The notes beneath the pieces are model-generated. The model had not been told where the DNA came from. It saw only the letters and a list, made by a program, of their open reading frames with translations, and did not search any database. The translations under genes and the position numbers were made by a program. 64,000 bases of DNA from an uncultured Spirochaetales bacterium (GTDB lineage Bacteria > Spirochaetota > Spirochaetia > CAYLLE01), in NCBI GenBank assembly GCA_964618265.1, contig CAZUAE010000002.1:71520-135519 (forward strand), read 5' to 3'. The first letter of the stretch is position 1. Every line of letters begins with the position of its first letter. Below, in pieces: positions 10,509 to 59,257 of the stretch.

Positions 10509-10645
10509 TAATTCTCATTTTATACCTTTAGGCAACAGAAAGAGGAATTATTTTAAAAGAAAAGCCGTAAAATAATCTAATAAAATGAGAATTCCCCCTT
10601 CTATATTAGTAAGAAGGCAATTCTAAATTTACCATTTAGAATTGC
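10509..10645 (-). repeat. Dispersed palindromic repeat, full copy (modules C+B+A, inverted orientation)
   Basis: TAATTCTCATTTTATACC...ATAAAATGAGAATTCC (10509-10595) followed by CCTTCT..AGAAGG and GCAATTCTAAAT..ATTTAGAATTGC. It aligns with the reverse complement of 20171-20308. Confidence 0.9.
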
Positions 10646-10668
10646 TGAAAAGCCTGGTTCATAGTAAT

Positions 10669-11511
10669 TCAGCTGTAAATATATTCTTTTATTTCACCGG
10701 CATGTTTTTTCAATTTCCGAATAGCACGCATTTCAATTTGCCGGACAGTTTCAGGAGATATACCCATCTCATCACTTATCCGTTTTAACGTATATTTCTT
10801 ACCTCCCTCTATAGCGTATCGGTAGAGGAGTATCTTCCTTTCCCGATCCATAAGATGGCGTAGAAAATGAAGGGTTTCATCCTGCATAGATTTCTGCATA
10901 AACTCGGTATCCGGAGAATATGAATAATCTTCAAAAATATCATGAAGAGTTCCGGAATCATCGTTTATTTCAGTGTCCAAAGAAACAGGATTAAAGGATA
11001 TATTAATTATTTCTAATACCTCATCCGTATCCATACCAACATACTCTGCCAATTCTTCAATTGACGGTTTCTTCATATCTCGCTGATTCAATGTTATAAA
11101 GGCCTTTTGTATCTTTCTTAACATTTCTTCTTTACGGTGGGGTAAACGTATCGGTCTCCGTTTGTTCGATAACGATCTAGAGATAGATTGTTTTATCCAC
11201 CAAGACGCATAGGTACTGAACCGGACATTCTTTCTGTAATCATACTTCGAAGCAGCTTTTATTAATCCGATATTTCCCTCCTGAATGAGATCTAGAAATG
11301 CTACATCTTCATTCATGTAGGCCTTAGCTATTTTTACAACTAAACGAAGATTAGCTTCTACCAGCCTCTCCTTAGCTTTTAAATCCCCTTTCATAATTCT
11401 TCTTGATAATTCTCGTTCTTCTTCGAAGTTTAACAGGGGTGACTTTTTTATCTGGGAGAAATACATTTTTAATGCATCATCATATTTTTTCTTGGTTTTT
11501 GGTCTTTCCAT
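10669..11511 (-). CDS. Alternative sigma70-family factor lacking region 1.1 (RpoS/group-2-like)
   Basis: Region 1.2 DALKMYFSQI, region 2 ANLRLVV and DLIQEGNIGL..FSTYASWWIKQ, region 4 ISPETVRQIEMRAIRKL. An SD (GGGAGG) sits 6 nt before the ATG at 11511. Confidence 0.9.
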   Translation of the reverse strand: MERPKTKKKYDDALKMYFSQIKKSPLLNFEEERELSRRIMKGDLKAKERLVEANLRLVVKIAKAYMNEDVAFLDLIQEGNIGLIKAASKYDYRKNVRFSTYASWWIKQSISRSLSNKRRPIRLPHRKEEMLRKIQKAFITLNQRDMKKPSIEELAEYVGMDTDEVLEIINISFNPVSLDTEINDDSGTLHDIFEDYSYSPDTEFMQKSMQDETLHFLRHLMDRERKILLYRYAIEGGKKYTLKRISDEMGISPETVRQIEMRAIRKLKKHAGEIKEYIYS

Positions 11512-11539
11512 AATGAACCTCCCCATTCATGATTGTTAT

Positions 11540-11556
11540 AGCAAGAATCATACCAA
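11540..11556 (-). promoter_or_regulatory. sigma54 (RpoN) -24/-12 promoter of the sigma-factor gene
   Basis: TTGGTATGATTCTTGCT matches consensus YTGGCACGRNNNTTGCW with exact GG-N10-GC spacing, about 30 nt upstream of the start codon. Confidence 0.7.
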
Positions 11557-11648
11557 ATACCCATCAATTTATTATGATGATTTTATTCTATACAATATAA
11601 AGAAATATTTAATGTCTTATTAAAGCAGTATTATTTTTTCAGGATTGT

Positions 11649-11666
11649 TGTATAATTTTTTATACA
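11649..11666. promoter_or_regulatory. Palindromic TGT-N12-ACA site, candidate enhancer-binding-protein UAS
   Basis: TGTATAA-TTTT-TTATACA is a perfect 7-bp inverted repeat about 100 bp upstream of the -24 element. Confidence 0.5.
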
Positions 11667-11736: not shown

Positions 11737-12030
11737 CTACTGATAAGCTTTGACAATCATTTCCGAGATGCCTAGTTGTGTATTCTTTGATATTGTTTTT
11801 GCATATTGATGATACAGAAGATCTTCAAAATAATCGTTACTTCCCTTACCTCCGAGGAGATTCGTCTTTTTTACTGTCTTCCTCATGGAATCAAGCATTT
11901 GTTTAATCAAAAGGGATTCAAATTCCGACGCTGCTTCCTTAACATCATTTGTATTGGATATTCGGCTTTCTTTATACTCTGGAATATTTCCTGTTGAATT
12001 ATTGAGAAAGGTTAGATCCGTTATATCCAT
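11737..12030 (-). CDS. flgJ: Rod-binding FlgJ N-terminal-domain protein (no muramidase domain)
   Basis: KEAASEFESLLIKQMLDSMRKTV...FEDLLYHQYAKTIS; 97 aa; directly downstream of flgG. Confidence 0.85.
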   Translation of the reverse strand: MDITDLTFLNNSTGNIPEYKESRISNTNDVKEAASEFESLLIKQMLDSMRKTVKKTNLLGGKGSNDYFEDLLYHQYAKTISKNTQLGISEMIVKAYQ

Positions 12031-12035
12031 CTACG

Positions 12036-12830
12036 TTACCTCTTAAGATTATTGGCGATACCTAACATAGTATCGGAAGTCTGTATTGCCTTTGAATTAA
12101 GCTCATATGCCCGCTGTGCCACAATCATATTAACCATTTCCTTTACAACAGCAACATTAGACATCTCCAAAAATTTATGAAGTGTCCTTCCCATTCCGTC
12201 AAAACTTGGTCTGCCTCCGATAGGATCACCTGAAGCTGAAGTCGTTTTGAATATATTTTCTCCAATCGCCTTGAGACCTGCGGGATTCACAAACCGGTAT
12301 AGTTCCAACTGACCCACCTGAATTGGTTCATCATTACCCGGCATCTTAACAGTTACTCGTCCATCCTGAGAAATTGAAACAGTATCCCGAAGAAAACCTT
12401 CCGGAAGAATGACGTCAGGCATGAGTCTATATCCGTCGGAAGTTACAAATTGTCCATTTGAATCAATTTTAAAAGATCCGTCTCGGGTATAACCATAACT
12501 TCCGTCGTATAAAAGAACTCGATAAAAACCTTCCCCTTCTATAGCTACATCAGAAACATTATCTGTGGCCTGAAGTGATCCCTGTGTATGTATTTTTTGG
12601 GTAGAACCAACTTTAACCCCGTGGCCCATCTGTACCCCTGCTGGAACAAGGGTCACCTCCGTTGCTGGAGTTCCGGCAGTTTTTAAAGTCTGATAGATAA
12701 GATCTTTAAACTCGGGCCTATTTTTCTTATAACCTACGGTGTTCACATTTGAAAGGTTGTTTGAAATGGTATCGATGTTGTACTGCTGACCAATCATCCC
12801 GGTTGCTGCTGTCCATAATGATCTCATCAT
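12036..12830 (-). CDS. flgG: Flagellar basal-body rod protein FlgG
   Basis: MMRSLWTAATGM, ISNNLSNVNTVGYKK, YTRDGSFKID, LEMSNVAVVKEMVNMIVAQRAYELNSK. Confidence 0.97.
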   Translation of the reverse strand: MMRSLWTAATGMIGQQYNIDTISNNLSNVNTVGYKKNRPEFKDLIYQTLKTAGTPATEVTLVPAGVQMGHGVKVGSTQKIHTQGSLQATDNVSDVAIEGEGFYRVLLYDGSYGYTRDGSFKIDSNGQFVTSDGYRLMPDVILPEGFLRDTVSISQDGRVTVKMPGNDEPIQVGQLELYRFVNPAGLKAIGENIFKTTSASGDPIGGRPSFDGMGRTLHKFLEMSNVAVVKEMVNMIVAQRAYELNSKAIQTSDTMLGIANNLKR

Positions 12831-12845
12831 ATCTTTTTATCTCCC

Positions 12846-13694
12846 TTATACCTTCATCGTTTCGTTTATCAGCCTGCCGGCTAAACTATCCTGGGTCTGA
12901 ATTACCTTTTGATTTGCCTCGTATGTCCGGTTTACTTCAATCATTTTAACCATTTCTTGCACAGGATTTACATTTGCTCCCTCTAGAAAGCCTTGATGAA
13001 TCTTTGGTCTATTTTCACCTTCCGCGCTGAAGGCATCACCGGAATATTCTGTTGAACGCCACAGGGAATCCCCCTGCTTTTTCAAATACCGAGTCCGTTT
13101 GAAGTCCGTCAACTTCAATCGGTCAAGTAATTCCGCTTGCTCCCAATCATTTTCTAAAGATGAGACAAGCCGGGCGGGGTCCTCTGCATATAAAGGGTTT
13201 ATAAATATCTTCCCATCCTGATCAATTTTAAAATTGTTTTCCTTTAGCTGGATAGTACCCTTCTCTCCCAGTACGGGGTATCCTTGGCTGGTAACTAAAA
13301 TGCCATTGGGATCCAACGTGAATTCTCCGTTTCGGGTGTATCTCTCCCCGTAAGGAGTCATAACCGCGAAAAAACCTTTCCCTTCAAGGGCTAAATCAAA
13401 ATCGTTTTCTGTGATTTTCAAGGAACCTTGACTAAACTGTGTATACACCTCATTGGTTTCCACGCCTGTACCAAGTTTTCCCACAACAGGAGCTAAATCA
13501 ACAGAACCAAAGGGAAATTTTTTTACACCGTTATCGTTCATCCTTCTTAAGAGTAATTCGGGAAACGCCTTTTGCAGTGTTACATCTTTTTTATAGCCCG
13601 TTGTATCCACATTCGCGAGATTATTGGATATTACATCAAGCCTGTTCATTTGAGCAAGCATTCCACTCGCTCCGGTGTATATTCCTCTTATCAT
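12846..13694 (-). CDS. flgF: Flagellar rod protein FlgF/FlgG-like paralog
   Basis: MIRGIYTGASGM, ISNNLANVDTTGYKKD, YTRNGEF, LEGANVNPVQEMVKMIEVNRTYEANQK. Confidence 0.8.
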   Translation of the reverse strand: MIRGIYTGASGMLAQMNRLDVISNNLANVDTTGYKKDVTLQKAFPELLLRRMNDNGVKKFPFGSVDLAPVVGKLGTGVETNEVYTQFSQGSLKITENDFDLALEGKGFFAVMTPYGERYTRNGEFTLDPNGILVTSQGYPVLGEKGTIQLKENNFKIDQDGKIFINPLYAEDPARLVSSLENDWEQAELLDRLKLTDFKRTRYLKKQGDSLWRSTEYSGDAFSAEGENRPKIHQGFLEGANVNPVQEMVKMIEVNRTYEANQKVIQTQDSLAGRLINETMKV

Positions 13695-13728
13695 CAAATG
13701 CCTCCTGCGGCTTTGTCACTCTCTTCTA

Positions 13729-13755: not shown

Positions 13756-13812
13756 GGAGATATAAATTGATTGTGATTGTTTTTCAACTGCCTTTTTACT
13801 CATGTCATGCCT

Positions 13813-13897
13813 GGAATTCTCATTTTATTCGATTGGGTTACGGATTTTCTTTTAAAATCATGCCTCTTTCTGCCTACAGGTATAAAATGAGAATTCC
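13813..13897 (+). repeat. Dispersed repeat, module C only (85 bp, terminal inverted repeats)
   Basis: GGAATTCTCATTTTAT ... ATAAAATGAGAATTCC, a perfect 16-bp inverted repeat. Confidence 0.9.
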
Positions 13898-13958
13898 TCT
13901 TAAGTGTTCATTTAATCTTGAATTTAACCATGTTTTAGGTGTATGTTTTAAATCCGAC

Positions 13959-14031
13959 GCCAGGATAGCTCAGTCGGCAGAGCGGCTCACTCGTAATGAG
14001 CAGGTCCGGGGTTCGAATCCCCGTCCTGGCT
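13959..14031 (+). tRNA. tRNA-Thr (anticodon CGU)
   Basis: GCCAGGA..TCCTGGC-T acceptor; anticodon arm GCTCA-CT-CGT-AA-TGAGC; TTCGAAT T-loop. Confidence 0.97.
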
Positions 14032-14104
14032 ATTCACATTTCCTTTTACGGCTTTTCGTGAGAATCATGCCTCTTTCTGCCTAAAGGTATAAAATGAGAA
14101 TTCC
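14032..14104 (+). repeat. Dispersed repeat, module C with the left arm eroded
   Basis: TTTTACGGCTTTTC...AATCATGCCTCTTTCTGCCTAAAGGTATAAAATGAGAATTCC, near-identical to the right half of 13813-13897. Confidence 0.85.
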
Positions 14105-14207
14105 TCTTTCTATCTGTCCGTCACTATACAAATGATATATTATTCGATACCCTGTCTGAAGGATTTATAGGACCATAACTATGAAACTATAATTTGAAAG
14201 GTTATTT

Positions 14208-16664
14208 ATGTCGAATCAACAGGAAAAACAAAAACCTCAATTGGGGATGATCAGAAAGTTAAAAAATCTACCGGAGCTTACGCTACCCCCTGAATATGAG
14301 TTGAGGCATTATGAACCTGGCGATGAAAGTGCGTGGAAAAGGATAATATCCGCATCTTTTAAGAAGGAAGATATTGATTTCCAGAAGATGATGAGAACAG
14401 ATTATCCATACCGGCCCGAAAGAATCCTCTTCATTACCCGTAACAATATACCGGTGGCAACAGCTTCGGCATGGTATCGGCCAAAATGGGGAAAAAACTC
14501 GGGATATCTTCATATGGTAGGAGTACTGCCGGATCATTCAGGTAAGAAACTGGGCTTCATGGTGAGTCTCGCCGCTCTTTATCACATGATGCGGGAAGGC
14601 AAAAAAGAAGCTGTGCTTCATACCGATGATTTTCGTATACCCGCTTTGAAGACTTATCTCAAATTGGGTTTCAGTCCTCTTCTCTTTCACGAGAATCACC
14701 GCGAACGATGGCCTAAAATCTTCGATAAAATTGGAAAACCTGGATTAAAAGATGAGTTCTCCGATCTATTATCCGGACCTTTATTTGAACCGATGGAGGA
14801 AAAACCTGATTCCGATTCTCCCGATAAATACCGGTTCTGTCATAAATGGTATACGGAACGTCCCCATAAACTTGGAACGGGGAATACAGATTCCTTAGGA
14901 GATGAGTCGCTCTATAAACCCTCCCTTTTAGGAACTGCCAGGGTAAAACCGGAGACAATTGAAGCTGCGGCAAAGGCTTCTCTAAAGCTGATATACACCG
15001 CAGGGACAGCCGGTATACGGGAAGGAAGCAGAATTATCTTTTATATGGGAGGTCAACGGCCTTTGGTTGGAGGAATACAGGATATATCTATAGAGGATAA
15101 TTTCGATATGATTTTTAATCGCATCAAATTGGAACCTGTACATGTCCAAGGACCATCTTCTGTAGACCTGGAAGTTTCTGATAAAACGGCGAAACAGGTG
15201 GTAGTAAGCCTTAAAAAAGGCAATTTAAAGAAGGGAGACACAATAATAGTTGATGCCGGTCCTGATTCAGGATTTCCATGGACCCCCTTGGCTGGAAGGT
15301 ACGAAATAAAGGTGATTTTTGATACCGGTGATAATATTCCTCAGAGACGTTTGCCGGAACCATTAGTTATAGAGGTTTTACCAACGCAAGAAGATCACCT
15401 TGAAACAACTGTTAGCTGCACACATGGCACCACAGAAAGCCTTAAAGTTCACACTACTCTTCGTGATAAGTTTGATAACCGTGTACCGTTGGATGGCACG
15501 GTAGAACTGTCATCGGGTGACAGAAAAAAGTCTGTACCAATGAAAAATGGATTGTGTGAAACATTTTGGAAAAATGAGAATTTAACTTCGTTTAATATTC
15601 AAGCGGTACACAAAGAATCTAAGTTACGCTGCTCATCCAATCCTTCCATCCCAACTAAAGGAATGAACCTATATATTGGTGACCTTCATGTTCACGATTT
15701 CATGAGCGCCGCCCATGGATACACCGATGATATTTATCGATGGGCGAAAGAAGATCGGAATTTTGATTTCGTATCCATTCCTGTTCAGTTACATGGATGG
15801 TTAGACAATGAAAAATGGACTATAGCTAAATTTATGAATGAACGTTTTTTGGATGAAGGAAATTTTGTTACCTTTCTGGCAAATGAATGGCAGCACACAG
15901 GATATGCCGATAAGGTTATACATTTTTTAGGAGGAGATCAGCCGTACTTCTGCGTAGACGATAACCGGTACAGTAATGCCGCTAAACTCTACGAAGCAGT
16001 TCGGGGAAGTGACGCCCTTATCATCAGCCATCACTGCTCGTATCCTCCTGGAAGCTGGTGCTCCCGCACCGATTTTGAGGTAATAGAAACAGATGTAGAA
16101 CGCTTGGTAGAACTGTGGTCTATGCATGGCAGCTCCGAAGGTTTTGATACTCAAGACCGACCGCTCAGGAAGATGGATCCCGACAACACAGTACTAGCCG
16201 CACTTCGCAGGGGCTTACGAGTAGGTTTTGTAGGAGGATCGGATACGCATAGCGGCCGTCCGGGCGGATCAGCAAAGGAACCCTACCCTTACTGGGGAGG
16301 TATAGCCGCGGTATGGGCAAAATCTCTTACACGACGGGATTTATTCGAAGCGCTCTATGCCAGAAGGACCTATGCTTTAACAGGCGCCCGTATAGTCCTT
16401 AGAATGACTGTAAACGGAAGCCCCATGGGTTCGGAATTACCCGCAACAGATAGAGTAGATATTGCCATAGATGTTTGGGCTCCGGAAAGAATAAAATCTG
16501 TACAGATAATGAAAAACGGTATGCTGTATGATGAACATAGGGGAACCGGTAAGGAATTTCATCTTGAACGGGATGATACTGCCGGCGGAACCGCTTTTTA
16601 TCATTGCAGGGTACAACAGGAGGATGGTCATCTTGCTGTATGTTCACCGGTTTGGATTGGGTAA
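14208..16664 (+). CDS. Fusion protein: N-terminal GNAT acetyltransferase and C-terminal DUF3604/CehA-McbA-like PHP metallohydrolase
   Basis: GNAT motifs GYLHMVGVLPDHSGKKLG and LHTDDFRIPALKTYLKLGF. Metallohydrolase motifs GDLHVH, NEW, SHH, VELWSMHG and GGSDTHSG. Confidence 0.7.
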   Translation: MSNQQEKQKPQLGMIRKLKNLPELTLPPEYELRHYEPGDESAWKRIISASFKKEDIDFQKMMRTDYPYRPERILFITRNNIPVATASAWYRPKWGKNSGYLHMVGVLPDHSGKKLGFMVSLAALYHMMREGKKEAVLHTDDFRIPALKTYLKLGFSPLLFHENHRERWPKIFDKIGKPGLKDEFSDLLSGPLFEPMEEKPDSDSPDKYRFCHKWYTERPHKLGTGNTDSLGDESLYKPSLLGTARVKPETIEAAAKASLKLIYTAGTAGIREGSRIIFYMGGQRPLVGGIQDISIEDNFDMIFNRIKLEPVHVQGPSSVDLEVSDKTAKQVVVSLKKGNLKKGDTIIVDAGPDSGFPWTPLAGRYEIKVIFDTGDNIPQRRLPEPLVIEVLPTQEDHLETTVSCTHGTTESLKVHTTLRDKFDNRVPLDGTVELSSGDRKKSVPMKNGLCETFWKNENLTSFNIQAVHKESKLRCSSNPSIPTKGMNLYIGDLHVHDFMSAAHGYTDDIYRWAKEDRNFDFVSIPVQLHGWLDNEKWTIAKFMNERFLDEGNFVTFLANEWQHTGYADKVIHFLGGDQPYFCVDDNRYSNAAKLYEAVRGSDALIISHHCSYPPGSWCSRTDFEVIETDVERLVELWSMHGSSEGFDTQDRPLRKMDPDNTVLAALRRGLRVGFVGGSDTHSGRPGGSAKEPYPYWGGIAAVWAKSLTRRDLFEALYARRTYALTGARIVLRMTVNGSPMGSELPATDRVDIAIDVWAPERIKSVQIMKNGMLYDEHRGTGKEFHLERDDTAGGTAFYHCRVQQEDGHLAVCSPVWIG

Positions 16665-16674
16665 AACTGATTTA

Positions 16675-16899
16675 TCACTTTGAGAAGATATCGTTATATA
16701 TTTCTATTATTCTATCTTTATACGCCGCAGGCGCTTCGATTCTACCCCACCCTTTCTGCATCTGCCACAATCCGTCGTATGCGGAATCATGGTAACTTCG
16801 AAGCATGTGTGGTATTTTATTATCCTGCAAAACACCTTCAATTCTACGTGCTTCAACTTCATTTTCCACGGTTAAGATCGGTTCAAATTTTTTTTCCAT
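16675..16899 (-). CDS. DUF2007-like small putative signal-transducing protein
   Basis: VENEVEARRIEGVLQDNKIPHML..SAYDGL..GWGRIE pattern; 74 aa. Confidence 0.65.
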   Translation of the reverse strand: MEKKFEPILTVENEVEARRIEGVLQDNKIPHMLRSYHDSAYDGLWQMQKGWGRIEAPAAYKDRIIEIYNDIFSK

Positions 16900-16983
16900 A
16901 TATACGTTAATTTTATTTCATTCCCGGAAAAATCGGCTGAGAGTAATGGCCGATTTCCGGTAGATTTATCAAAAAAATATAGT

Positions 16984-17028
16984 AATTCTCACTTTGCAAT
17001 TAAGAATTGCCTCTTTACTAATGTAAAG
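16984..17028 (+). repeat. Dispersed repeat, degenerate modules A+B
   Basis: AATTCTCACTTTGCAATTAAGAATTGCCTCTTTACTAAT against AATTCTATATTTGCAATTTAGAATTGCCTTCTTACTAAT at 20173. Confidence 0.7.
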
Positions 17029-17044
17029 CTTGGAAGATATCTAA

Positions 17045-17257
17045 TTATTGAAAAATGGTTGGTTTGTTTTGTATCCTTCCTATTTCCTGTGCAATTTTTT
17101 CATTATTTTTCTGAAAAAGTTCTGTAATTGCTTCTACAATGCGGTCTGCATCAACGGGTTGTCCTTTCTGGAAGGCTTTTCCCAGTATAGATACCATCTC
17201 TTCACGGGTTAAACCCGCGGATACATTTTGATTTTCCTTAGTCGGTCCAATAGCCAT
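17045..17257 (-). CDS. Small hypothetical protein (70 aa, helical)
   Basis: SD GGGAGA before the ATG and an upstream TTGATT-N17-TATATT promoter-like motif. No recognised family. Confidence 0.55.
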   Translation of the reverse strand: MAIGPTKENQNVSAGLTREEMVSILGKAFQKGQPVDADRIVEAITELFQKNNEKIAQEIGRIQNKPTIFQ

Positions 17258-17353
17258 ACTATCATCTCCCTTATTTCATTTTTTCCACCTCAATAAATGA
17301 GGTTATTCGCTTAAAATATACCTCAATGATTTCTTCAAATCAATGTTTTATTT

Positions 17354-17986
17354 CTATTCCTTACGTTTAGCGGAAACAAAACGCACAAAATCATTGATAT
17401 TCTTAACCACGATTTTATCATTAAAAACCTCTATGCGTCTCTGAGCTGCAAAATGGTTTACCACTTTTTGGGTATCCTCCAGGGACATTCCAGCCCAATG
17501 CGCGATTCCATCAATGGTTGTTTTGAAAGTACGTTCTCCGTCATCTTCCCCGGTGGCGGGTAATTCCTCGTTAAGCATCAAAAACACATCAGCAACTTTT
17601 GATTGCGCATCCGGTAACGTAAGTATCATGAACCGTCTTTTCTGGTCATATATTCTTTTTGTGAATAATTTTAAGAGCTTAAGAGCGATTTGCGGATTAC
17701 CCTTCATGAGGATTTCAAAATTTTCCCTGTTAAATTCTAGTGCTTTTACATTATCTAAAGCTATAGCATTGGCAGACCGCGGAGCTTCTTCAAGGATTGC
17801 CATTTCTCCGAATATTTCTCCCGGTTTCAAAATATCAATTGTTTTTTCAATATCCGCCATGATCTTTGATATTTGAACCCTTCCCGATTGAATCAGATAA
17901 AATGCATCTCCGGGTTCGTATTCACAAAAGATTATATCCCCAGCCTGAAAGGTAACGGCGAACCGTTCGAATACAGATAAATCCAT
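17354..17986 (-). CDS. Crp/Fnr-family cNMP-binding regulator
   Basis: FYLIQSGRVQI, GEIFGEMAIL..PRSANA (cNMP cassette), C-terminal HTH-like TIDGIAHWAGMS. Confidence 0.85.
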   Translation of the reverse strand: MDLSVFERFAVTFQAGDIIFCEYEPGDAFYLIQSGRVQISKIMADIEKTIDILKPGEIFGEMAILEEAPRSANAIALDNVKALEFNRENFEILMKGNPQIALKLLKLFTKRIYDQKRRFMILTLPDAQSKVADVFLMLNEELPATGEDDGERTFKTTIDGIAHWAGMSLEDTQKVVNHFAAQRRIEVFNDKIVVKNINDFVRFVSAKRKE

Positions 17987-17987
17987 T

Positions 17988-18986
17988 TCATCCTTCCTCG
18001 ATGGCTTTTAAAGCCTTGTTTGTTTTTCGCTTTAACCCTTCATCGGGAGACATAGAAATTATTTTTTTATAAAAACTGGCGGCTCTTGTAGTATCATCTA
18101 TATTACGATACGCCTCTCCAATGTAGAATAACGCATCAGGTAAATCCGGAATCTTAGGATATTTTTGTATTAAATTGGTATAGTGTTTTATACATTGATC
18201 ATATTTTTTCATTGAAAAAAGACATCGTCCGATTTCAAATAATGATTTGACTAAATATTCTTCGCTGGGCCCTGAGGCTATTATTTCTTTTAATTCTGCT
18301 ATAGCTTCGTTATATTTTTGCTGACTGAAGAGGCTTACAGCATTGTAATATTTTTTTGCAGTATCGGATAGTTCTTTTCCTTTTTTAGGTTTCGATGTAG
18401 GAGCAGATTGCTCTAAACCGGGGATGTTTGGTCCTTTGCCGGATCCGTATCTTTGCGAATATTCTTCTGCCTGTGACAAATAATTTGTTACTTTTTTTTC
18501 GTATCTACCTGTTGGGTAATAGGTAAGATAACGGTTTAACGCATATACAGCTTCTGGATATTTTTTCTTCCGGAGATAATATTCACCTATACGATACAAT
18601 CCTGTTTCAGGTTCAACCTGCTCCTCTAGTGTAAGAAGATTTCTTACGCGTTTATGGATTCTTCTTAATTGGTTCGAAAACACCTGTAACATTTTCATGA
18701 TGATTCTGGTTTTTTGACTAACCAAGTTTTCGAATTCCGGTACGGTAAACATCACAACCGATGAATCGGTGAGAACAATAGCATTTTCCTCTCTCTGATA
18801 TTTCCCTAAGGCTGATTTTACCCCGAAAAACTCGCCTGTTTGGATATAATCGTGTATTTCTTGTCCAGTTTCGATATCAGTGGTGGTAAGGCTTACTCTC
18901 CCAGTTTTCAGGATAAAAATCCTGTCGCTTATATCTCCCTTGAAATATATAACTGAGTTAGTCTTATACGTCATCGCTTTGGGCAC
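17988..18986 (-). CDS. Cyclic-nucleotide-binding domain plus TPR-repeat protein
   Basis: IFILKTGRVSL, GEFFGVKSAL..REENA. TPR repeats SLFEIGRCLF and ALFYIGEAY. GTG start. Confidence 0.8.
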   Translation of the reverse strand: MPKAMTYKTNSVIYFKGDISDRIFILKTGRVSLTTTDIETGQEIHDYIQTGEFFGVKSALGKYQREENAIVLTDSSVVMFTVPEFENLVSQKTRIIMKMLQVFSNQLRRIHKRVRNLLTLEEQVEPETGLYRIGEYYLRKKKYPEAVYALNRYLTYYPTGRYEKKVTNYLSQAEEYSQRYGSGKGPNIPGLEQSAPTSKPKKGKELSDTAKKYYNAVSLFSQQKYNEAIAELKEIIASGPSEEYLVKSLFEIGRCLFSMKKYDQCIKHYTNLIQKYPKIPDLPDALFYIGEAYRNIDDTTRAASFYKKIISMSPDEGLKRKTNKALKAIEEG

Positions 18987-19099
18987 AGTATAACTCCATT
19001 TTTTAAAACTCTACTCTTATATACGGATAAAATCAAGATCTTTTATTATTGACATAGATGAGGCTCTTTCAAAAATACCATTTTTCAGAGTCTCAGTAT

Positions 19100-19139
19100 T
19101 GAGCCGTTTTCAAAATTAGATAATTTTGAAAACGGCTCA
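19100..19139. other. Perfect 19-bp inverted repeat with a 2-nt spacer
   Basis: TGAGCCGTTTTCAAAATTA-GA-TAATTTTGAAAACGGCTCA. Confidence 0.9.
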
Positions 19140-19158
19140 GATATCTAAATATTTGCAT

Positions 19159-19294
19159 CAATTCTAAATATGCAACTTAGAATTGACTTCTTCCTAAGAT
19201 AAAAGGAGGAATTCTCATTTTATTCGCTTATTTTTATGGCTAATTATAGAAAATCATGCTGGATCTGTTGCCTGATGGAATAAAATGGTAATTC
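19159..19294 (+). repeat. Dispersed repeat, full copy (A+B+C), upstream of the PHP gene
   Basis: CAATTCTAAATATGCAACTTAGAATTG, then GGAATTCTCATTTTATTC (19208) ... ATAAAATGGTAATTCC (19294). Confidence 0.85.
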
Positions 19295-19303
19295 CTCAAA
19301 TAC

Positions 19304-20164
19304 TTGACTGTAATCAAAATAAAGAGTAACTCTACAAGGATGATGGATCTACACACCCATTCTACAATATCGGACGGAAGTATGACACCTGAAGACCTTA
19401 TTTTGTATGCTCAGAAAAAGGGGCTGTCTTCCTTGGCACTTACAGATCATGATACTGTGGGAGGATTAGAAGAAGCTGAAACAGCAGCGTCAAAAAGTTC
19501 TATTATATTTATTCCGGGTATCGAAATCGAAATTACTTATTCCCCCGGGGTTTTTCATATTTTAGGTCTCGGTCTAAAAAAATGGCGGGAAGTTATACCG
19601 GAGAGATTATCACGTCTCAAAAAATATCGTTACACCCGCAATCAGAGAATCATCGAAAAAATGAAAAAAGCCGGTATACACATTGACTATTCCGAAGTGG
19701 AGGCTGTTTCAGGAGGTGATATTGTAGCAAGACCCCACTTTGCCCGAGTACTCGTTGATAGAGGAATTGCACGTTCAATAAAGGATGCATTTGAAAGGTT
19801 TCTTGGAACAGGTCAACCTTTTTATGAACCTATAAAGACACTCTCATTGTCCGAAGCAATACAGCTGATTCATGATGGAGGAGGCAAATCGATCCTTGCT
19901 CATCCCCAAAGTCTTTATCTGTCCAAAAAAAATTTTATTTCTTCTATAGAAAAATGGAAAGAGGCGGGACTTGATGGTATTGAGGCATACCATTCGAATT
20001 TAAAATACCGGCAGAGCATCTGGTATGAAAAAATTGCAAATGAATTAGATTTAGTTGTGACTGCAGGCTCTGATTTCCATGGAAAACATAGACCGGATCG
20101 AAAATTGGGTTATACCAGCTCTGGTATGAAGATTGAAGACCGCTTTCTAATACCTTTCATTTGA
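19304..20164 (+). CDS. PHP-domain phosphoesterase (TrpH/YciV-like); start may be 19340
   Basis: DLHTHSTISDG, LTDHDT, GIEI, HILGL, RPHFA, ILAHP, GSDFHG. Confidence 0.9.
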   Translation: MTVIKIKSNSTRMMDLHTHSTISDGSMTPEDLILYAQKKGLSSLALTDHDTVGGLEEAETAASKSSIIFIPGIEIEITYSPGVFHILGLGLKKWREVIPERLSRLKKYRYTRNQRIIEKMKKAGIHIDYSEVEAVSGGDIVARPHFARVLVDRGIARSIKDAFERFLGTGQPFYEPIKTLSLSEAIQLIHDGGGKSILAHPQSLYLSKKNFISSIEKWKEAGLDGIEAYHSNLKYRQSIWYEKIANELDLVVTAGSDFHGKHRPDRKLGYTSSGMKIEDRFLIPFI

Positions 20165-20170
20165 ACCAAA

Positions 20171-20308
20171 GCAATTCTATATTTGCAATTTAGAATTGCC
20201 TTCTTACTAATATAGAAGGCGGAATTCTCATTTTATTCGGTTATTTTATTGCTAATTCTAAGAAATTACCTCGTTTTCTGCTGCCTAAAGGTATAAAATG
20301 AGAATTCC
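20171..20308 (+). repeat. Dispersed repeat, full copy (A+B+C), downstream of the PHP gene
   Basis: GCAATTCTATATTTGCAATTTAGAATTGC-CTTCTTACTAATATAGAAGGC-GGAATTCTCATTTTAT...ATAAAATGAGAATTCC. Confidence 0.9.
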
Positions 20309-20373
20309 TGTTTGATCCATGTGCTTAGTTAAAGTTTCAGGTATAAATGTTTAAACTATTTCACTTTTAACCC

Positions 20374-23044: not shown

Positions 23045-23084
23045 AAAAAACCTCAATCGGTTAGTATTAAATGGGGAAATTGAT

Positions 23085-23130
23085 AATCATGCCTTTTTCT
23101 GCTGCATAAAGGAATAAAAAGAGAATTCCT
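23085..23130 (+). repeat. Dispersed repeat, right half of module C
   Basis: AATCATGCCTTTTTCTGCTGCATAAAGGAATAAAAAGAGAATTCCT. Confidence 0.75.
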
Positions 23131-23140
23131 CTGTATAATC

Positions 23141-36688: not shown

Positions 36689-36708
36689 GGCAACTGCTGG
36701 GAGTTACA

Positions 36709-36845
36709 GCAATTCTAAATTTGCAATTTAGAATTGCCTTCTTCATAAGATAGATGGGGAAATTCTCATTTTATTCGATTGTTTTATGTCTAATTCTATA
36801 AAATCAAGCTGTTTCTGTTGCCTGATGGGATAAAATCAGAATACC
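36709..36845 (+). repeat. Dispersed repeat, full copy (A+B+C)
   Basis: GCAATTCTAAATTTGCAATTTAGAATTGC (perfect 12-bp palindrome arms), then GAAATTCTCATTTTATTC...ATAAAATCAGAATACC. Confidence 0.88.
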
Positions 36846-36892
36846 TCCGGGAGTTAAAAATTCTTCGGAGTCTGAATACTGAGTATCAGGAA

Positions 36893-38211: not shown

Positions 38212-39066
38212 CTACTGTAATTCACTGTTTTGAGTCGGGATGCTTTTATCCGGGTAGAGCCGGCCGGTAGCTTCATTCACAAATCGTGACAATACGATCA
38301 GCAAAACATTAGACTTTTCCTGTTCAATGTATCGCAGCCATTTTTTATAAGGTACCTCCTTACAAAAATCTTCCCGCTTTCTTTCAGCGTCTTCTCTTGT
38401 ATCCTGATCCGGAAATGTGCTAAGCAGATAAATGGTAAATCCAATTAATAGTTTTTTCGGTTTTTGTTCCAAGAGTTCTTCTATATAATCCTTAGCTTCT
38501 TCATATTTATTTCCCACCACAAGACTGAATCCTAACAGCAGGAATGTCCAATGTCTTGTTTTACGATACCTTAGACGGGATAGTTCTTTTTTCGACAACA
38601 GATCACGAAAATAATTCTCCATTACATTTTCATCATTAGATAATATTTTGGGTATACCAAAATAAAGAGCAAAATCCAGATGCAGATTTTTTTTCTCCTC
38701 CTCAAGAGTTTTTTTCAAATCCGTTACCTTTTCTGTATTTCCCTTAACTAGGTAAGCATTTATAAGAATTCTTACAAACTGTTTACGATACCTTTTCTTA
38801 TCGTATATCTGCTTTTCCAAATAGACTAATAGAGAGTCCCAATCTTCCCTTTCTAAATAAGTGAAAAATTTCCAATTGAGTATAAAGAAAATATTCATAC
38901 CGATTACTACTGCTGCAAAAAAGAAAGACAATATCCAAATCCATTCTTTAGACCACAATACCTGACTATACTCAGTACCCAAAATTAAAATTGGTACTAA
39001 AAATATAAAAATAAACGAAAATATGATAATTGCATTAAAAAATATAAAAATTAATTTAAATTTCAT
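38212..39066 (-). CDS. Hypothetical membrane protein (2 TM helices plus a helical-repeat region)
   Basis: SD GGAGGG before the ATG at 39066 (MKFKLIF); two N-terminal TM helices. Confidence 0.6.
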   Translation of the reverse strand: MKFKLIFIFFNAIIIFSFIFIFLVPILILGTEYSQVLWSKEWIWILSFFFAAVVIGMNIFFILNWKFFTYLEREDWDSLLVYLEKQIYDKKRYRKQFVRILINAYLVKGNTEKVTDLKKTLEEEKKNLHLDFALYFGIPKILSNDENVMENYFRDLLSKKELSRLRYRKTRHWTFLLLGFSLVVGNKYEEAKDYIEELLEQKPKKLLIGFTIYLLSTFPDQDTREDAERKREDFCKEVPYKKWLRYIEQEKSNVLLIVLSRFVNEATGRLYPDKSIPTQNSELQ

Positions 39067-39264
39067 CAAAATTCCCTCCACGTTCTTAATATGCTATTAT
39101 GAAGACAATATTCACATAATAAATACATAGTCTCTTAGTAGAATATCATAAATTTAAATTCATTTACTATACAAGTATAGTAATTATTAATCTGTAGTAA
39201 AAAAAATTGCCGCATAAGATACAATAAGAAATATAAATTGCTGTTACCTGTTAAACTAGATGAT

Positions 39265-39318
39265 AATTCGCTCTTTTATCTTAGGAGGAAGACAATTCTA
39301 AATTGCAAATTTAGAATT
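39265..39318 (-). repeat. Dispersed repeat, modules A+B (inverted)
   Basis: The reverse complement AATTCTAAATTTGCAATTTAGAATTGTCTTCCTCCTAAGATAAAAG matches 19160-19206. Confidence 0.8.
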
Positions 39319-39330
39319 TCTGAAACTAGA

Positions 39331-39360
39331 TTTACATTTTTTACATAAATCCACTATACT
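39331..39360 (+). promoter_or_regulatory. Possible sigma70 promoter for the HD-GYP gene
   Basis: TTTACA-N18-TATACT immediately upstream of the start at 39370. Confidence 0.4.
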
Positions 39361-42231: not shown

Positions 42232-43518
42232 TTATACCGTATCGTCTATTAGACGAACTACATTATCCCTTATATCTTTTATACTCCGTTCAAAATTCGG
42301 AACAGAAATAAATCTTTGTCTAATATATCTTTTAGTGGCACGGAAGCCGTATTTTCTCATAAGAGATAAAATAGTAGAAAATTCAGCCGGATTGTTTACG
42401 GATTTAAAAAGAGGTTCCTCATCAGCAAGTAATCCAAAATAATAGTCCACATCCAAAGCAGATACAGTATCATATTTTCTTCCATGTGTACCGCTTTTAT
42501 AAGACTTTAGTTTTTGAATATCCTCATCTAACTTTTTACAAATCCCTTTTCTGTATACGGTCTTAAGAATTTGGAATTTTATTAAAGATTGCGTTCTATC
42601 TTGATTGGTTCCCGATTTGATGGAACTCGGTATATCTACCGTTACAAGTAATTCTCCACGATTATCAGTCCCTAATATAACTTCATTCCAAAAATCCTGT
42701 TCTGGTATAATAGGAGTACCGCGAGGACGCAGCTGAATTTTTTTTAATTCATTCAAAGATTTTCCTAATCTTGAGGTAACATCTTTGAGTCTTCTATTTT
42801 CCGGATCTTCTGCAAGTTTATCCAAGTATACCGGTAAAAGTTCTTCTTCAATTAAGCTGACGGCTTGAGATAGAGGCAAAACGGTGTTTTTAAAATAATA
42901 TACTACATCACTCTCCTCTATTCCGCATGGCTCATCCGAAAATTCCTTTAATAATACAGGAAAAAGACGTCTTAATATCCATCTCGTTCCTTTGCCAAGT
43001 TTTTTAAGATCAATGAGAGCTTTATAATTATCATCCCGATCAGAATATTTCCAAAAAGCATAAGTCAAAATCCATAGATTTTTCTGGTCGCGGCGACTAA
43101 TATTTTTATCAACATTAAGATCATTCCATATATTTTCATATCTGGTAAGTATTCTTAATAAGATTTTATATCGTATTATTCCGGGTTTATTTTTTATTAA
43201 TACAGTATGATTTTCAGGCGGATCAGAGATAAATACACCTTCAATTATTCTGAGACTCTCCATTATTTTTTCCCTGGATTCAACAGTTAGCTTAGGGGCA
43301 GCGTAATTTGCCTCTATTTTTGAAGCACCTTCAGCTAGTTTCTGAGCTACTAAAAGTTTAACTTCAGCTAAATTTAATGAAACGGAAATTCTGGACACAT
43401 CTCCACGGACATTATATGAGGACTGATATAAATCGGTTATTTTCGCTTCCTGTTTTTTTAATATTGACAAGTCGGTACGCCATTTAGATTCCAAATCGCT
43501 CATATATAAATAATACAA
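42232..43518 (-). CDS. Hypothetical protein, 423-428 aa (start probably 43503)
   Basis: Long ORF with the local codon usage; no recognised motif. Confidence 0.65.
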   Translation of the reverse strand: MYYLYMSDLESKWRTDLSILKKQEAKITDLYQSSYNVRGDVSRISVSLNLAEVKLLVAQKLAEGASKIEANYAAPKLTVESREKIMESLRIIEGVFISDPPENHTVLIKNKPGIIRYKILLRILTRYENIWNDLNVDKNISRRDQKNLWILTYAFWKYSDRDDNYKALIDLKKLGKGTRWILRRLFPVLLKEFSDEPCGIEESDVVYYFKNTVLPLSQAVSLIEEELLPVYLDKLAEDPENRRLKDVTSRLGKSLNELKKIQLRPRGTPIIPEQDFWNEVILGTDNRGELLVTVDIPSSIKSGTNQDRTQSLIKFQILKTVYRKGICKKLDEDIQKLKSYKSGTHGRKYDTVSALDVDYYFGLLADEEPLFKSVNNPAEFSTILSLMRKYGFRATKRYIRQRFISVPNFERSIKDIRDNVVRLIDDTV

Positions 43519-43568
43519 CAGGATAAGGGTATAAGGAAAGGCTTAACTTTATTAATTATCACTGCTCA

Positions 43569-43597
43569 GGAATTCAAATTTGTTAATTTATAATTGC
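43569..43597. repeat. Degenerate module A of the dispersed repeat
   Basis: GGAATTCAAATTTGTTAATTTATAATTGC against GCAATTCTAAATTTGCAATTTAGAATTGC. Confidence 0.5.
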
Positions 43598-43648
43598 TGT
43601 GCTGCCCTTGCTGTACATGAATAAAAGATCTCGGTATGATAAACTGTT

Positions 43649-56015: not shown

Positions 56016-56178
56016 ACCAAACTCCTTTTAACGATTATTCGTTGTAATTAACACGTTTTCTCAATTAATAAACATATCACATTTTTTTCTTTATGCAAGC
56101 AAATACTTTTAAAGAAAACAACTTTTTTTATTACCTGCATATAATCAACCCGTTTCTTTCGGCAAATACCTCCTCCTC

Positions 56179-58785
56179 CTATAACGATTGAATTTTATTT
56201 TCCACGAGTCTGCGAAATTGAGAACTGTAGGAGTTGTTAGCGAGTTTTCGCAGCTCTTTTTTAATTTCTTCTTCTTGTTGTTCATCCATAGAATTAATTA
56301 TTTCACTATACTGCTTTAAATCTTCAATCGTCCGGCTTTGAATATACCCGGCCGCTACATGCCATATCGTATCACCTCTGCTAATACGGTATTCATCTCC
56401 CTCCGGCATTATAAGAATATCACCAGGATATATCCAGTGTGAATCTTTAACTCCCGGTCTATTTTCAGTTCCTAATTTTCTGTAACCGTTAAGGTCAGAT
56501 ATTGTATTCGTAGTACGAATGATATCACTAATGGTTATCTCAAAGTCATAATTCTCCCCTGATTCACTAGTGTAATCAATTTTTCTCAACTCCTTCATGC
56601 GAGGAGTTTCAAAAAAACTATTCGGTATATCAGCTTCAGGAACTTTCTCGTCTTGGGTTGTATCAGGACTGATATCTGTGTTTTGAGAATCTGCAGAATC
56701 CTTTTCTTCACTTTCAACAGTAACAGAATTGTTATCAGGTTTCTCGGTTGTTTCCTGTTCGGTTTTTTCTACAGTTTCTCTTCCATTTTGAGCTTGACCG
56801 TTAGTACTATCTTGGTCCTGTTCAGTTTGTGAATTTTTTTCTTTACTTGTTTTATCCAACCCGGAATTCGAATTATCTGCCTGTGCTACTATATCGGCAT
56901 CTCCGCCAGAAACATCATCTCCTTGTTTTCCGTTTCCGCGAAAACCAAACCACCACGTCAAAAAACCTGTAAATAATATCAGTGCAACAATAGATGCCAC
57001 TGTAAAAAATTTGACGGGAAATCTTTTTTGTTTTCTCTTTATTGCCCCTGTTTCCTGTGTAGCATGGACCGGCGTGATCTCCTCTTTAGGCTTAAGTTTT
57101 GATGGAGCCTGTGCCTGTTCTTTCTCTTCAGAAAAACGGGACTGAGTCTCCTTTACTGATTCAGAGGTTCCCGGTATCCGCTGTTCCCTAATTTTCGCAG
57201 TGCGGGGCGGTTCCAACTCTCTGCTTAACCTGATAAGCCGCTCCCGTTCGCTGAAATAGAAGCTGTTGTCACCTTCGGGAAGTTCTGAAATATACCGTCT
57301 TGCCTTCTTTGAAGCTTGAATATCGGAAGCGGATAAGCCTTCTATCAAGAGTGTATAAAAACATAATATCTTCCCTTCTTTCTGATATAATTCACCTAAG
57401 AGCGGAATATCCGAACTGCCCAGCCGTTTAGTATTTAATATACTTGAAAGTTCAGAGGATATATTATTTAAAAGTTGGTCGTCTCTTGTTTCTGAAAGAA
57501 GGATAGATGCTGAACAGATATTATTAAATAAAGCTATGAGAACAGGATCCATATTACCGGAAATTTGGCTTAATTTAATTGATACTGCATCATCTCTTGT
57601 TTTATTTCCGGATATAAGATCATTAAAATAATTAATAAATATGTCTACAGTAGGAATATCAGTGGAAGACATAAATTTTTTGAATTTTTTTCCCGATTCA
57701 ATCACAAATTCTTTTATTACTGTATCGGTATTTATTTTGCTTTTAATTGGAACGTAGGGTATCCCAGTGAAAATGTTCAATCGCTCCTTTAAGGATACAG
57801 TTTTATCTTTTGAGTCAATTATGATTAAATCATTATTTTTTCCATTAACATTTTCATCAGAAAGCATAATTGGTCTTGGGAAATCTTCGTTATCTATAAT
57901 AATCTTATTACCTTGTTCATCATCACCTAGTTTATAAGAAAATTTTCCGCTAGTTACGCCTTTTGTATTATTTAGCTGATGGACAGTTACCTGAAACATC
58001 CCCGCTTTAGCGGACGGAAATAACGTCGTAAAATCCTGTATCTTTTTCTTGTTTTTTGAAAACAAAACCGCACGTGAATCGGAATATTTTTTTCTCTTTA
58101 GAAATCTTAGAAGTCCTTCATTTAATCTGGAAGTAACTGCACCTTGCAGCAGATCAGGATCAATACCGTATTTTGCCGCTTCCCGAAAATAATCCACCAG
58201 GACTTTGTCTGATACCAAGTTAGAATTTTTGAATAAAATAGTCGTTTCATCCAATACAATAAAACCTGCCTGATCTATTTTATGAAAGGGCAGCAAAAGC
58301 GGATCTCTTTTTATATGATCCTTCATTATGTCCGCACGCTGGTTAAAATGCTTATCCTGTAATTCCCGCTTCTTTAGATCAAAAATAACTTCATTATTGT
58401 AAGCTATGTTGATATTCTTGTTATCCATGAAATAAACGAGAACCCGGTTTCCATCAGATTTGACGTGTTTATAGTCTTCTATAGCTTTTGGTTTAGTTTT
58501 AAAGATCTGCAGGAATTTTTTAAAGTGTTGAATTATTTCCGAATCACCTATATATCGGTACTCACGTACACTTTCATTTCTCACCTCATAAAGTGGATTG
58601 CCTGTGAGAGAGTCGGGAACTATTACAGTATAAATATCTGATAATACTTGCTTAGGAATTCTGTCGGAAGTTCCAATTCTTAAAAATGGGCGCAGGTCTT
58701 GTTTATCTTTTCCAATATAGATTATATAACATTCGTTATCTATATGAAAAATGCGTCTTTCCGGAAATTTATCAAAATTTTCCAT
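56179..58785 (-). CDS. Bitopic membrane protein: large cytoplasmic domain, single TM helix, acidic/polar linker, periplasmic LysM-like domain
   Basis: TM FFTVASIVALILFTGFLTWWFGF (about 56942-57010) preceded by basic KRKQKR; LysM-like HWIYPGDILIMP..YRISRGDTIWHVA. Confidence 0.7.
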   Translation of the reverse strand: MENFDKFPERRIFHIDNECYIIYIGKDKQDLRPFLRIGTSDRIPKQVLSDIYTVIVPDSLTGNPLYEVRNESVREYRYIGDSEIIQHFKKFLQIFKTKPKAIEDYKHVKSDGNRVLVYFMDNKNINIAYNNEVIFDLKKRELQDKHFNQRADIMKDHIKRDPLLLPFHKIDQAGFIVLDETTILFKNSNLVSDKVLVDYFREAAKYGIDPDLLQGAVTSRLNEGLLRFLKRKKYSDSRAVLFSKNKKKIQDFTTLFPSAKAGMFQVTVHQLNNTKGVTSGKFSYKLGDDEQGNKIIIDNEDFPRPIMLSDENVNGKNNDLIIIDSKDKTVSLKERLNIFTGIPYVPIKSKINTDTVIKEFVIESGKKFKKFMSSTDIPTVDIFINYFNDLISGNKTRDDAVSIKLSQISGNMDPVLIALFNNICSASILLSETRDDQLLNNISSELSSILNTKRLGSSDIPLLGELYQKEGKILCFYTLLIEGLSASDIQASKKARRYISELPEGDNSFYFSERERLIRLSRELEPPRTAKIREQRIPGTSESVKETQSRFSEEKEQAQAPSKLKPKEEITPVHATQETGAIKRKQKRFPVKFFTVASIVALILFTGFLTWWFGFRGNGKQGDDVSGGDADIVAQADNSNSGLDKTSKEKNSQTEQDQDSTNGQAQNGRETVEKTEQETTEKPDNNSVTVESEEKDSADSQNTDISPDTTQDEKVPEADIPNSFFETPRMKELRKIDYTSESGENYDFEITISDIIRTTNTISDLNGYRKLGTENRPGVKDSHWIYPGDILIMPEGDEYRISRGDTIWHVAAGYIQSRTIEDLKQYSEIINSMDEQQEEEIKKELRKLANNSYSSQFRRLVENKIQSL

Positions 58786-59213
58786 TAGGGAAATGCTCCT
58801 TCTTAAAACAGCTTTGTTTTCATTTTCTGTAAGAAAGATGTGTCTATCCTAATCATATAATTCATTTTCATATTCATAATCATTATACCAGGTTAGTTAA
58901 AAAATATCATACGTGATAATACATTATCTGCTTTTTTCCGGATTTTTTCTTATGAAACATCCAAAATGAGTATCTATTTGCAGTAAAGGCGTGACGCTCA
59001 ATACCGGAAGGTAATGCTAAAGACATTGTCTTTATGTAAAAATTTTTCATATATATAGTTGCATTTTACCGGTAAATATAAAACAGATCAAGTTTTTCTT
59101 TTGTAAATGTCAATTCGATCTAAAGGTTTGTTTATAAAAAATATGGCTTTTGCAAATCATGAAACTAACCGAACCAGCAGATTTAGTCATAAAGACATAC
59201 GCAGGAGTATTTC

Positions 59214-59257
59214 GGAATTACCCCTTTTATTTTAGGAAGAAGGTAATTCTAAATTGC
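59214..59257 (-). repeat. Dispersed repeat, partial modules B+A (inverted)
   Basis: GGAATTACCCCTTTTATTTTAGGAAGAAGGTAATTCTAAATTGC resembles 39265-39306. Confidence 0.7.

Follow-up and report, generated by a model that had tools for sequence, protein, structure and literature searches.

Abundant intergenic repeats of about 100–150 bp that form hairpins in transcripts are known from Neisseria (Correia elements) and from Streptococcus pneumoniae (BOX elements). Correia elements duplicate TA, not 9 bp, while BOX elements are modular, consisting of boxA, boxB and boxC, the inner one of which varies in number, and in this respect resemble the A-B-C units described here. Spirochaetes are known as hosts of MITEs (miniature inverted-repeat transposable elements), since according to a census, the genomes of a Spirochaetes cluster comprising Leptospira, Sediminispirochaeta and Treponema carry 145 MITEs on average (PMC11602168). 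MITEAba12 of Acinetobacter is about 113 bp long and non-coding, with 16-bp terminal inverted repeats and a 9-bp duplication, and its parent ISAba12, which resides in the same genome, was inferred from the shared ends (PMC6382973). In this study, we analyzed a family of palindromic intergenic repeats in a stretch of 64,000 nt (called the window in the following) from contig CAZUAE010000002.1 of an uncultured Spirochaetales bacterium. Full units of this family consist of a palindrome (module A, consensus CAGCAATTCTAAATTTGnAATTTAGAATTGnCT), a hairpin (module B) and a module C, which is bounded by 16-bp arms and contains the motif TGCCTAAAGGTA; an earlier note on this DNA, made from the letters alone, had described these modules accurately. 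The observations presented below make it very probable that the family is a MITE, i.e., a non-autonomous DNA transposon that is moved in trans.

Elements with intact ends begin with CAG (variants CAT and AAG) and end with CTG (variant CTC). Their outer ends are imperfect inverted repeats, which read CAGCAATTCTAAAT at the A end and, as reverse complement, CAGGAATTCTCATTTTAT at the C end when followed inwards. The two ends agree at 10 of the first 12 positions, giving the consensus CAGSAATTCTMA, and in two elements from a sediment metagenome (L006 and L008, see below) the inverted repeat CAGCAATTCT / AGAATTGCTG has no mismatch over 10 bp. For the analysis of target-site duplications, the 9 nt immediately outside the termini were compared, with the flanks aligned in element orientation, for nine elements with intact ends, namely c1, c5, c6, c8, and c9 from the window and L003a, L003b, L006, and L008 from the sediment loci. 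A 9-bp direct repeat with 8–9 of 9 identical bases immediately flanks every one of them. In the window, c1 (10506..10647, minus strand, full A-B-C unit of 142 bp) is located between the stop of a sigma-factor gene (10669) and the start of a Polysacc_deac_2 gene (10460), and its duplication (10497-10505 and 10648-10656), which reads CAGGCTTTT on the minus strand, is identical at 9/9 positions. The full units c5 (19156..19297, plus strand, 142 bp; 19147-19155 and 19298-19306, AAATATTTG / AAATACTTG), c6 (20169..20310, plus strand, 142 bp; 20160-20168 and 20311-20319, TTTGAACCA / TTTGATCCA) and c8 (36707..36847, plus strand, 141 bp; 36698-36706 and 36848-36856, TGGGAGTTA / CGGGAGTTA) are each flanked by repeats matching at 8/9 positions, with the left copy at c6 including the TGA stop codon of the PHP phosphoesterase gene. 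The short form c9 (39262..39322, minus strand, 61 bp) again has identical flanks (39253-39261 and 39323-39331, ATCTAGTTT, 9/9). The same was observed for the elements on the sediment-metagenome contigs, with CTGAGAAGT / CTCAGAAGT (8/9) at the 50-bp L003a, and CTTTAGTAT, CATCTGATC, and CATAGAATT on both flanks (9/9 each) of L003b (200 bp), L006 (143 bp), and L008 (142 bp), respectively.

With the same geometry, an identity of at least 8/9 is reached at random window positions with a chance of 4e-4 per element and, therefore, nine duplications in nine elements cannot be explained by chance. A looser flank search is in agreement with this, as the elements gave scores of 7–11, which were reached by only 3.2% of random flank pairs. 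The duplicated 9-mers show no obvious shared consensus. These results overturn one statement of the earlier note, according to which there was no consistent target-site duplication. The four full units in the window (141–142 bp) are 75–83% identical in pairwise comparison. Whereas the copies thus diverge by 17–25%, the window duplications contain only 3 mismatches in 45 positions, which suggests that much of the copy divergence may be older than the insertions, i.e., that the copies may stem from several source lineages.

The duplications are also decisive for the question whether the repeats are REP/REPIN (repetitive extragenic palindrome) or BIME-like (bacterial interspersed mosaic element) units, whose spread depends on a RAYT transposase (IS200/IS605-like, Y1) that works on single-stranded hairpins, an alternative offered by the earlier note. 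Like REP/REPIN and BIME, the units studied here are short, palindromic, mosaic, and exclusively intergenic, they occur as singlets and as doublets in inverted orientation, and their predicted folds are strong (z-scores −2.7 to −5.8). However, the target is not duplicated when REP or IS200/IS605-type elements move, in contrast to the 9-bp duplication at all intact elements. Furthermore, REP sequences carry GTAG or CGTC tags and accompany a RAYT gene that is flanked by REPs, whereas neither tag is present at the ends of A and C, judged by the criterion given in PMC3733652, no Y1 transposase domain is encoded in the window, and the palindrome lacks compensatory changes. Taken together, a REP-like nature of the family appears highly improbable.

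A second line of evidence comes from the closest relative on record, an NCBI metagenome-assembled genome labeled Spirochaetia (L091), whose PHP protein is 82% identical to the one in the window at a DNA identity of ~71%. L091 has the genes from DUF3604 through PHP (window 16000-20200) in the same order. Nevertheless, it contains no element at the site of c4 (16982..17041), between two small open reading frames (ORFs), where its spacer is 66 nt shorter, and none at the site of c5 upstream of the PHP gene, where its spacer is about 210 nt shorter; the family profile yielded no match in L091. That the copies are missing from corresponding positions at both comparable sites is in line with mobile DNA rather than with a fixed regulatory motif, a distinction already raised in the earlier note. 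In L091, the PHP stop codon is followed, at the position of c6 in the window, by GCAAAACAATTATTCCGTTTTACCGCAAAAATTGC (L091 3845-3900), possibly a different repeat; about 100 nt past the stop, the L091 contig ends.

These findings bear on a further explanation, namely that the copies are not mobile DNA but a host regulatory or structural signal under selection at specific genes, e.g., a terminator, an operator or a nucleoid-protein site. Copies are indeed found near gene ends and gene starts, and module A with a subsequent CTTCTT has the score of a terminator-like site. Terminator-like sites in general are more numerous in the region than in shuffled sequence (20 vs. 11.7 ± 3.5), with two of them (10645-10617 and 19188-19211) located within elements, which is no more than suggestive. 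In addition, the right end of C points toward the start of the downstream gene in four of five co-directional contexts, yet this bias is not significant (binomial P = 0.19), and a scan for consensus promoters revealed 44 sites compared to 44.0 in shuffled sequence, i.e., no enrichment. A signal maintained by the host would also have to account for the target duplications, the absence of the elements from the corresponding L091 sites, the occurrence of copies in both orientations and in every kind of intergenic context, and for ends that are conserved while the interior is highly variable. It is, therefore, very improbable that host selection on such a signal explains the family.

The abundance of the family was estimated from metagenomic contigs. 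The window matches JGI (Joint Genome Institute) contigs of a microbial-mat metagenome exactly, and Logan contigs of two mat runs (X1 and X3) were placed on c6 for determination of depth. Depths for X1 and X3, respectively, were 11.8 and 6.2 for the single-copy flanks, about 2200 and about 1330 for module A, about 290 and about 165 for the left arm of C, about 50 and about 35 for the C core, and about 2570 and about 1580 for the right 35 nt of C. The element ends are hence present at about 190–250 times the single-copy depth in both runs. Repeat depth climbs at ~20170 and drops past 20309, which corresponds to the borders of c6, and the sequences outside these borders are heterogeneous (agreement 0.4–0.5), as expected of dispersed copies. 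This suggests roughly 200 element ends per genome equivalent, in accordance with the genome-wide abundance predicted by the earlier note. As the depth ratios are similar in X1 and X3, most of these copies can be argued to belong to this organism. The Logan contigs break at every copy, and the JGI contigs Ga0153773_1000115 and Ga0153773_1005886 stop within c8 (window 36761) and within c11 (window 59221), respectively. The family thus explains the fragmentation of short-read assemblies of this mat spirochaete, in which contigs end inside copies, and its recognition should aid binning, scaffolding, and annotation of the lineage. A third JGI contig stops at 43821, ~220 nt from c10, and the spacer at this position may hold another repeat.

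In summary, the elements are small (50–200 bp) and non-coding, have terminal inverted repeats and a duplication of fixed length, occur as many dispersed copies with unrelated flanks, and are absent from two comparable sites in a relative. With regard to these features, the suggestion of a non-autonomous, MITE-like element has held up well. Movement of such an element would require a transposase that is encoded elsewhere in the genome (or has been lost by now) and that binds both CAGSAATTCTMA ends. This enzyme, most likely of the DDE type, would cut at the CAG/CTG termini and the element would be joined into a 9-bp staggered break of the target, the repair of which would yield the 9-bp duplication. 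The combination of CAG...CTG ends and a 9-bp duplication provides an exact search key for the parent transposase.

Several observations weigh against this interpretation. A transposase with these ends was found neither in the window nor in the 9.4 kb to its left; in line with the earlier note, no ORF of the window has a transposase domain, including Y1 and RAYT domains, and neither transposase nor Y1 domains were detected in the 9.4 kb to the left. Of the decayed copies, c2, c4, c10, and c11 as well as a solo A palindrome on a neighboring contig (L094) have no recognizable duplication. The comparison with L091 shows absence of the element and not a base-exact empty site, because the spacers no longer align at ~71% DNA identity. 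A polymorphism of filled and empty sites was not seen in the population data, nor was a precise-excision joint across c6, with these data consisting of contigs only, which drop rare variants. With full copies just 75–83% identical to each other, nothing points to very recent activity. Finally, related genomes in the same mat may inflate the copy numbers derived from depth. Still, a MITE remains by far the most probable identity of the family in our view.

Integron attC sites were also considered as candidates. They were rejected, as the copies occur in both orientations and are scattered among housekeeping genes, and neither a GTTRRRY core nor, in the window, an integrase domain was found.

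Regarding the architecture of the MITE family, the end motif is present four times in a full unit, i.e., in both A arms and in both C arms. As seen from the depth on c6 in both mat runs, the ends outnumber the interior by far. Moreover, mat contigs contain joints in which A is fused directly to the right part of C, skipping 62–81 nt, and L003a (50 bp) contains nothing but the A palindrome plus 21 nt from the C end and still shows a 9-bp duplication of its own (8/9). Based on these joints, the excess of ends and the duplication of L003a, the minimal mobile unit is probably A together with the right end of C (the last ~21–35 nt), with a length of about 50–60 bp. The right A arm and the left C arm would accordingly be internal inverted copies of the end motif. 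The elements of the sediment organism include an additional stretch, X, and a hairpin of another kind, B′ (AAGGCTTTC...GAAAGCCTT), and it appears that B, the C core and, in this organism, X and B′ are optional inner modules, with duplication and deletion accounting for their gain or loss. The terminal sequence of the short forms c9 and c11 is CGAATTATC (corresponding to GGAATTCCTC) and GGTAATTCC, respectively, which represents a C module collapsed to GGAATTCC. As GAATTC is its own reverse complement, the two GAATTC cores act as direct repeats, and a deletion between them would be the simplest explanation for this collapse. A more far-reaching version would be a nested or composite MITE system in which solo A palindromes (33–35 bp), A plus right C end (50 bp), and the forms of 142–200 bp are each substrates of one transposase, perhaps from an insertion sequence (IS) group undescribed in Spirochaetia, with some copies co-opted as hairpins at transcript ends. 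We regard this extended scenario as rather unlikely.

All 11 copies listed in the earlier note proved to be real. A profile hidden Markov model (HMM) built from four full A-B-C units and run with a reporting limit of E ≤ 1 recovered 10 of the 11 places, whereas the remaining copy (43567-43599, CAGGAATTCAAATTTGTTAATTTATAATTGCTG) was spotted by eye only. The full units c1, c5, c6, and c8 were matched at E = 1e-39, 4e-40, 1.4e-41, and 1.1e-41, respectively, and repeat detection showed that distant copies are linked by 140-nt inverted matches. The 16-mer of the C arm (at most three mismatches) gave 16 matches compared to 2.9 ± 1.9 in shuffled sequence, with none of 100 shuffles reaching 16. For the 12-mer of module A alone (two mismatches), no enrichment was observed (20 matches vs. 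14.8 expected), and the specificity of module A resides in the paired palindrome only. In the window, 4952 bases (7.7%) are intergenic, and 1001 of these (~20%) belong to elements. None of the 1001 element bases overlaps a gene and copies are present in both orientations, just as had been stated before.

Among the incomplete copies, c9 (HMM positions 2-65, E = 6.5e-12) comprises A, B, and the collapsed C mentioned above. c11 (59213..59263, minus strand; HMM positions 16-60, E = 6.7e-8) consists of a decayed left A arm, the right A arm, B, and a collapsed C as well. c4 (plus strand; HMM positions 2-55, E = 1.4e-4) is a short form with A, a variant of B, and the decayed end GGAAGATATC. Only the right part of C is left in c7 (23082..23133, plus strand; HMM positions 93-142, E = 1.4e-7), 43 nt upstream of the start of the PBP1A gene. 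In c2 (13786..13899, plus strand; HMM positions 26-142, E = 5e-17), a decayed A is followed by the B variant ACTCATGTCATGCC and by an intact C with perfect 16-bp arms; since its left end is decayed, a duplication is not recognizable. The neighbors of c2 are the start of a flagellar rod gene (13697, minus strand) on one side and the gene for tRNA-Thr on the other, past which c3 (14043..14106, plus strand; HMM positions 75-142, E = 7.5e-10) retains only the right ~64 nt of C. The start of c3, previously placed at 14032, had to be corrected to about 14043, 12 nt after the tRNA gene. The tRNA-Thr(CGU) gene (13959-14031) is thus flanked on both sides by copies in the same orientation, c2 and the truncated c3, whose right parts are 98% identical over 46 nt. 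This suggests that a local duplication, or a rearrangement between copies, may have taken place around the tRNA gene.

The weakest member of the family is c10 (43567..43599, plus strand), a decayed solo A-like palindrome of 33 bp that extends from CAG to CTG, has no clear duplication, and escaped the HMM at E ≤ 1. It is located 49 nt from the start of a 428-aa ORF without transposase signature. Another solo A palindrome (GCAATTCTTAATTGCAAATATAGAATTGC) is found ~1.1 kb to the left of the window start (L094 14896-14930), between a LeuA-like and a DUF5312 gene; this copy has no CAG/CTG ends and no clear duplication and is the same in four independent assemblies. Apart from this solo A, the 9.4 kb to the left of the window contain housekeeping genes only, while contigs on record to the right of the window are shorter than 2.7 kb. 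Two further hairpins are found beside family members. A perfect palindrome with 18-bp arms, TGAGCCGTTTTCAAAATT-AGAT-AATTTTGAAAACGGCTCA, is present at 19100-19139 in the divergent spacer just upstream of c5 and absent from L091, and a hairpin of similar style, GGAAAAATCGGC...GCCGATTTCC, is located at ~16925-16961 beside c4. These hairpins could be bidirectional terminators or another small repeat.

The strong predicted folds, with three stable hairpins on either strand, raise the question whether the copies belong to a structured non-coding RNA gene family or are RNA motifs in untranslated regions. This notion gains some support from two runs labeled metatranscriptomic, whose contigs are sparse and in part run from unique flanks into element copies. 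RNA libraries may, however, contain DNA, and contig starts are not equivalent to transcript ends; in particular, unitigs break at repeats, so that contigs beginning at 19325 and 23121 are no evidence of transcription starting there. Either strand of the elements folds equally well, as is the case for any inverted repeat, and the Rfam search over the window revealed three tRNAs only and no family match for the elements. Covariation, which the earlier note had proposed to analyze, was not found either. In 13 copies of the A palindrome, 87.0% of cells are paired compared to 86.2% in shuffles, in 7 of 12 pairs all departures are unpaired cells, and a change on both sides is seen only once, compared to 0.8 expected in shuffles. 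The palindrome is hence kept by conservation of its sequence and not by selection on pairing. Similarly, where the two C arms differ in c5 and c8, pairing is not restored. Together with the target duplications, these observations leave hardly any likelihood for an RNA family. For the MITE copies, effects of the hairpins on transcripts of neighboring genes are possible and, if there are any, would be a side effect.

Searches in other collections yielded only few related sequences. The full pattern of the C module with both arms had no match in 185,579 species-representative genomes, whereas the same pattern was found at eight loci in metagenome contigs, of which five are true relatives, two are unrelated tandem arrays, and one has the arms only. 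The true relatives (L003, L005, L006, L008, and L010) all come from one sediment metagenome. They have nothing but the elements in common with the window, without coding similarity and with different inner modules, and these contigs appear to represent a second organism carrying the family. The tandem arrays are found in two other metagenomes with 30–34% GC (L004 2743-2907 and L007 3340-3665) and contain 3.2 and 6.3 copies, respectively, of a 52-bp unit. This unit combines the back-to-back palindrome AATTCTCAT(AAA/TTT)ATGAGAATT with a hairpin of the type CTCGGGAGATTC..AATCTCTTCTC; the core of its palindrome equals that of the C arm, yet the family profile gave no match. The arms-only locus (L009 1614-1686), from a further metagenome with 43% GC, is located at the very end of its contig and has 14-nt arms (AATTCTCATTTTAT / ATAAAATGAGAATT) around an unrelated core of 45 nt. 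Possibly, this is another MITE with the same end. The presence of AATTCTCATTTTAT arms with a different core in at least one further metagenome contig hints at a transposase recognizing this end that is spread over several organisms. In viral contigs, a 15-mer gave single chance matches only, the right-end pattern gave none, and the pattern of the A palindrome hit one unrelated locus with 51% GC. A distant blastn search of the plasmid collection with one full element yielded no match. A described IS end or MITE was not matched in the species-representative genomes, the viral contigs or the plasmid collection searched, in agreement with the novelty assumed in the earlier note. This MITE family seems not to have been described previously.

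The host of the elements is, by its sequence affinities, an uncultured member of Spirochaetia. This assignment is based on the PHP phosphoesterase, whose best organism-named homologs carry the labels Spirochaetia, Spirochaetales or Treponema, and on the spirochaete marker domains CfpA_C, TP_0747_N, and Borrelia_P83 in window proteins. A search for the closest genome using CarB gave best matches of only 61–67% identity with inconsistent labels, and repeats of the family were not found there. The window has a GC content of 38.6% and its gene content is of the housekeeping type, including carAB, tsaD, a sigma factor, flagellar rod proteins, and PBP1A, as well as three aminoacyl-tRNA synthetases, ClpA/S, and PPDK. 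The mechanical ORF of carB (593-4099, minus strand) is extended in frame by 89 codons, with overlap into carA; its family match begins at residue 90, and the gene was called at 593-3832 (1079 aa). At 12036-13697 and 11737-12030, two flagellar rod genes are directly followed by the gene for a rod-binding protein of the FlgJ N-terminal type. Genes for the L-ring and P-ring are absent between them, which fits a spirochaete periplasmic flagellum. Three ORFs, all on the minus strand, have no significant Pfam match, namely 42232-43518 (428 aa), 38212-39081 (289 aa), and 56179-58785 (868 aa), with the latter showing only a sub-threshold match to LysM (E = 0.042).

The MITE family described here belongs to an ordinary kind of element and does not open up a new kind of biology. 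It is, however, a clean example, with a minimal form of 50 bp and optional inner modules, in a phylum that has already been noted as rich in MITEs. We know of no sequence similarity of the family to Correia or BOX elements; to our knowledge, the sequences of the BOX modules are unrelated and BOX elements have not been described with a 9-bp duplication. Duplications of 8–10 bp are characteristic of several IS families, namely ISAs1 and ISMae2 (with ends CAGGG), the IS4 group, IS903, IS1, and IS66. For ISAs1 and ISMae2, the duplication length fits and the ends found here, CAGC or CAGG followed by AATTC, match CAGGG only in part. Prokaryotic Mutator-like families, there including ISLre2 and ISKra4, are characterized by repeats of 8–9 bp and a conserved terminal C (PMC3942029). 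The 9-bp duplication and the terminal C or CAG of our elements are compatible with all these families, a similarity that serves as a lead only. Bacterial MITEs as a group are 50–200 bp long without an ORF, have terminal inverted repeats of at least 10 bp, duplications within 2–10 bp and tens to hundreds of copies, and are ~90% intergenic (PMC11602168), and the family resembles them in all these respects, with an uncultured mat spirochaete as its host. Compared to MITEAba12, whose ends GGCTTTGTTGCACAAA are unrelated to CAGSAATTCT and for which neither internal copies of the end motif nor modular forms have been described, the family differs in sequence and architecture, but it is a close analog with regard to size and the 9-bp target duplication.

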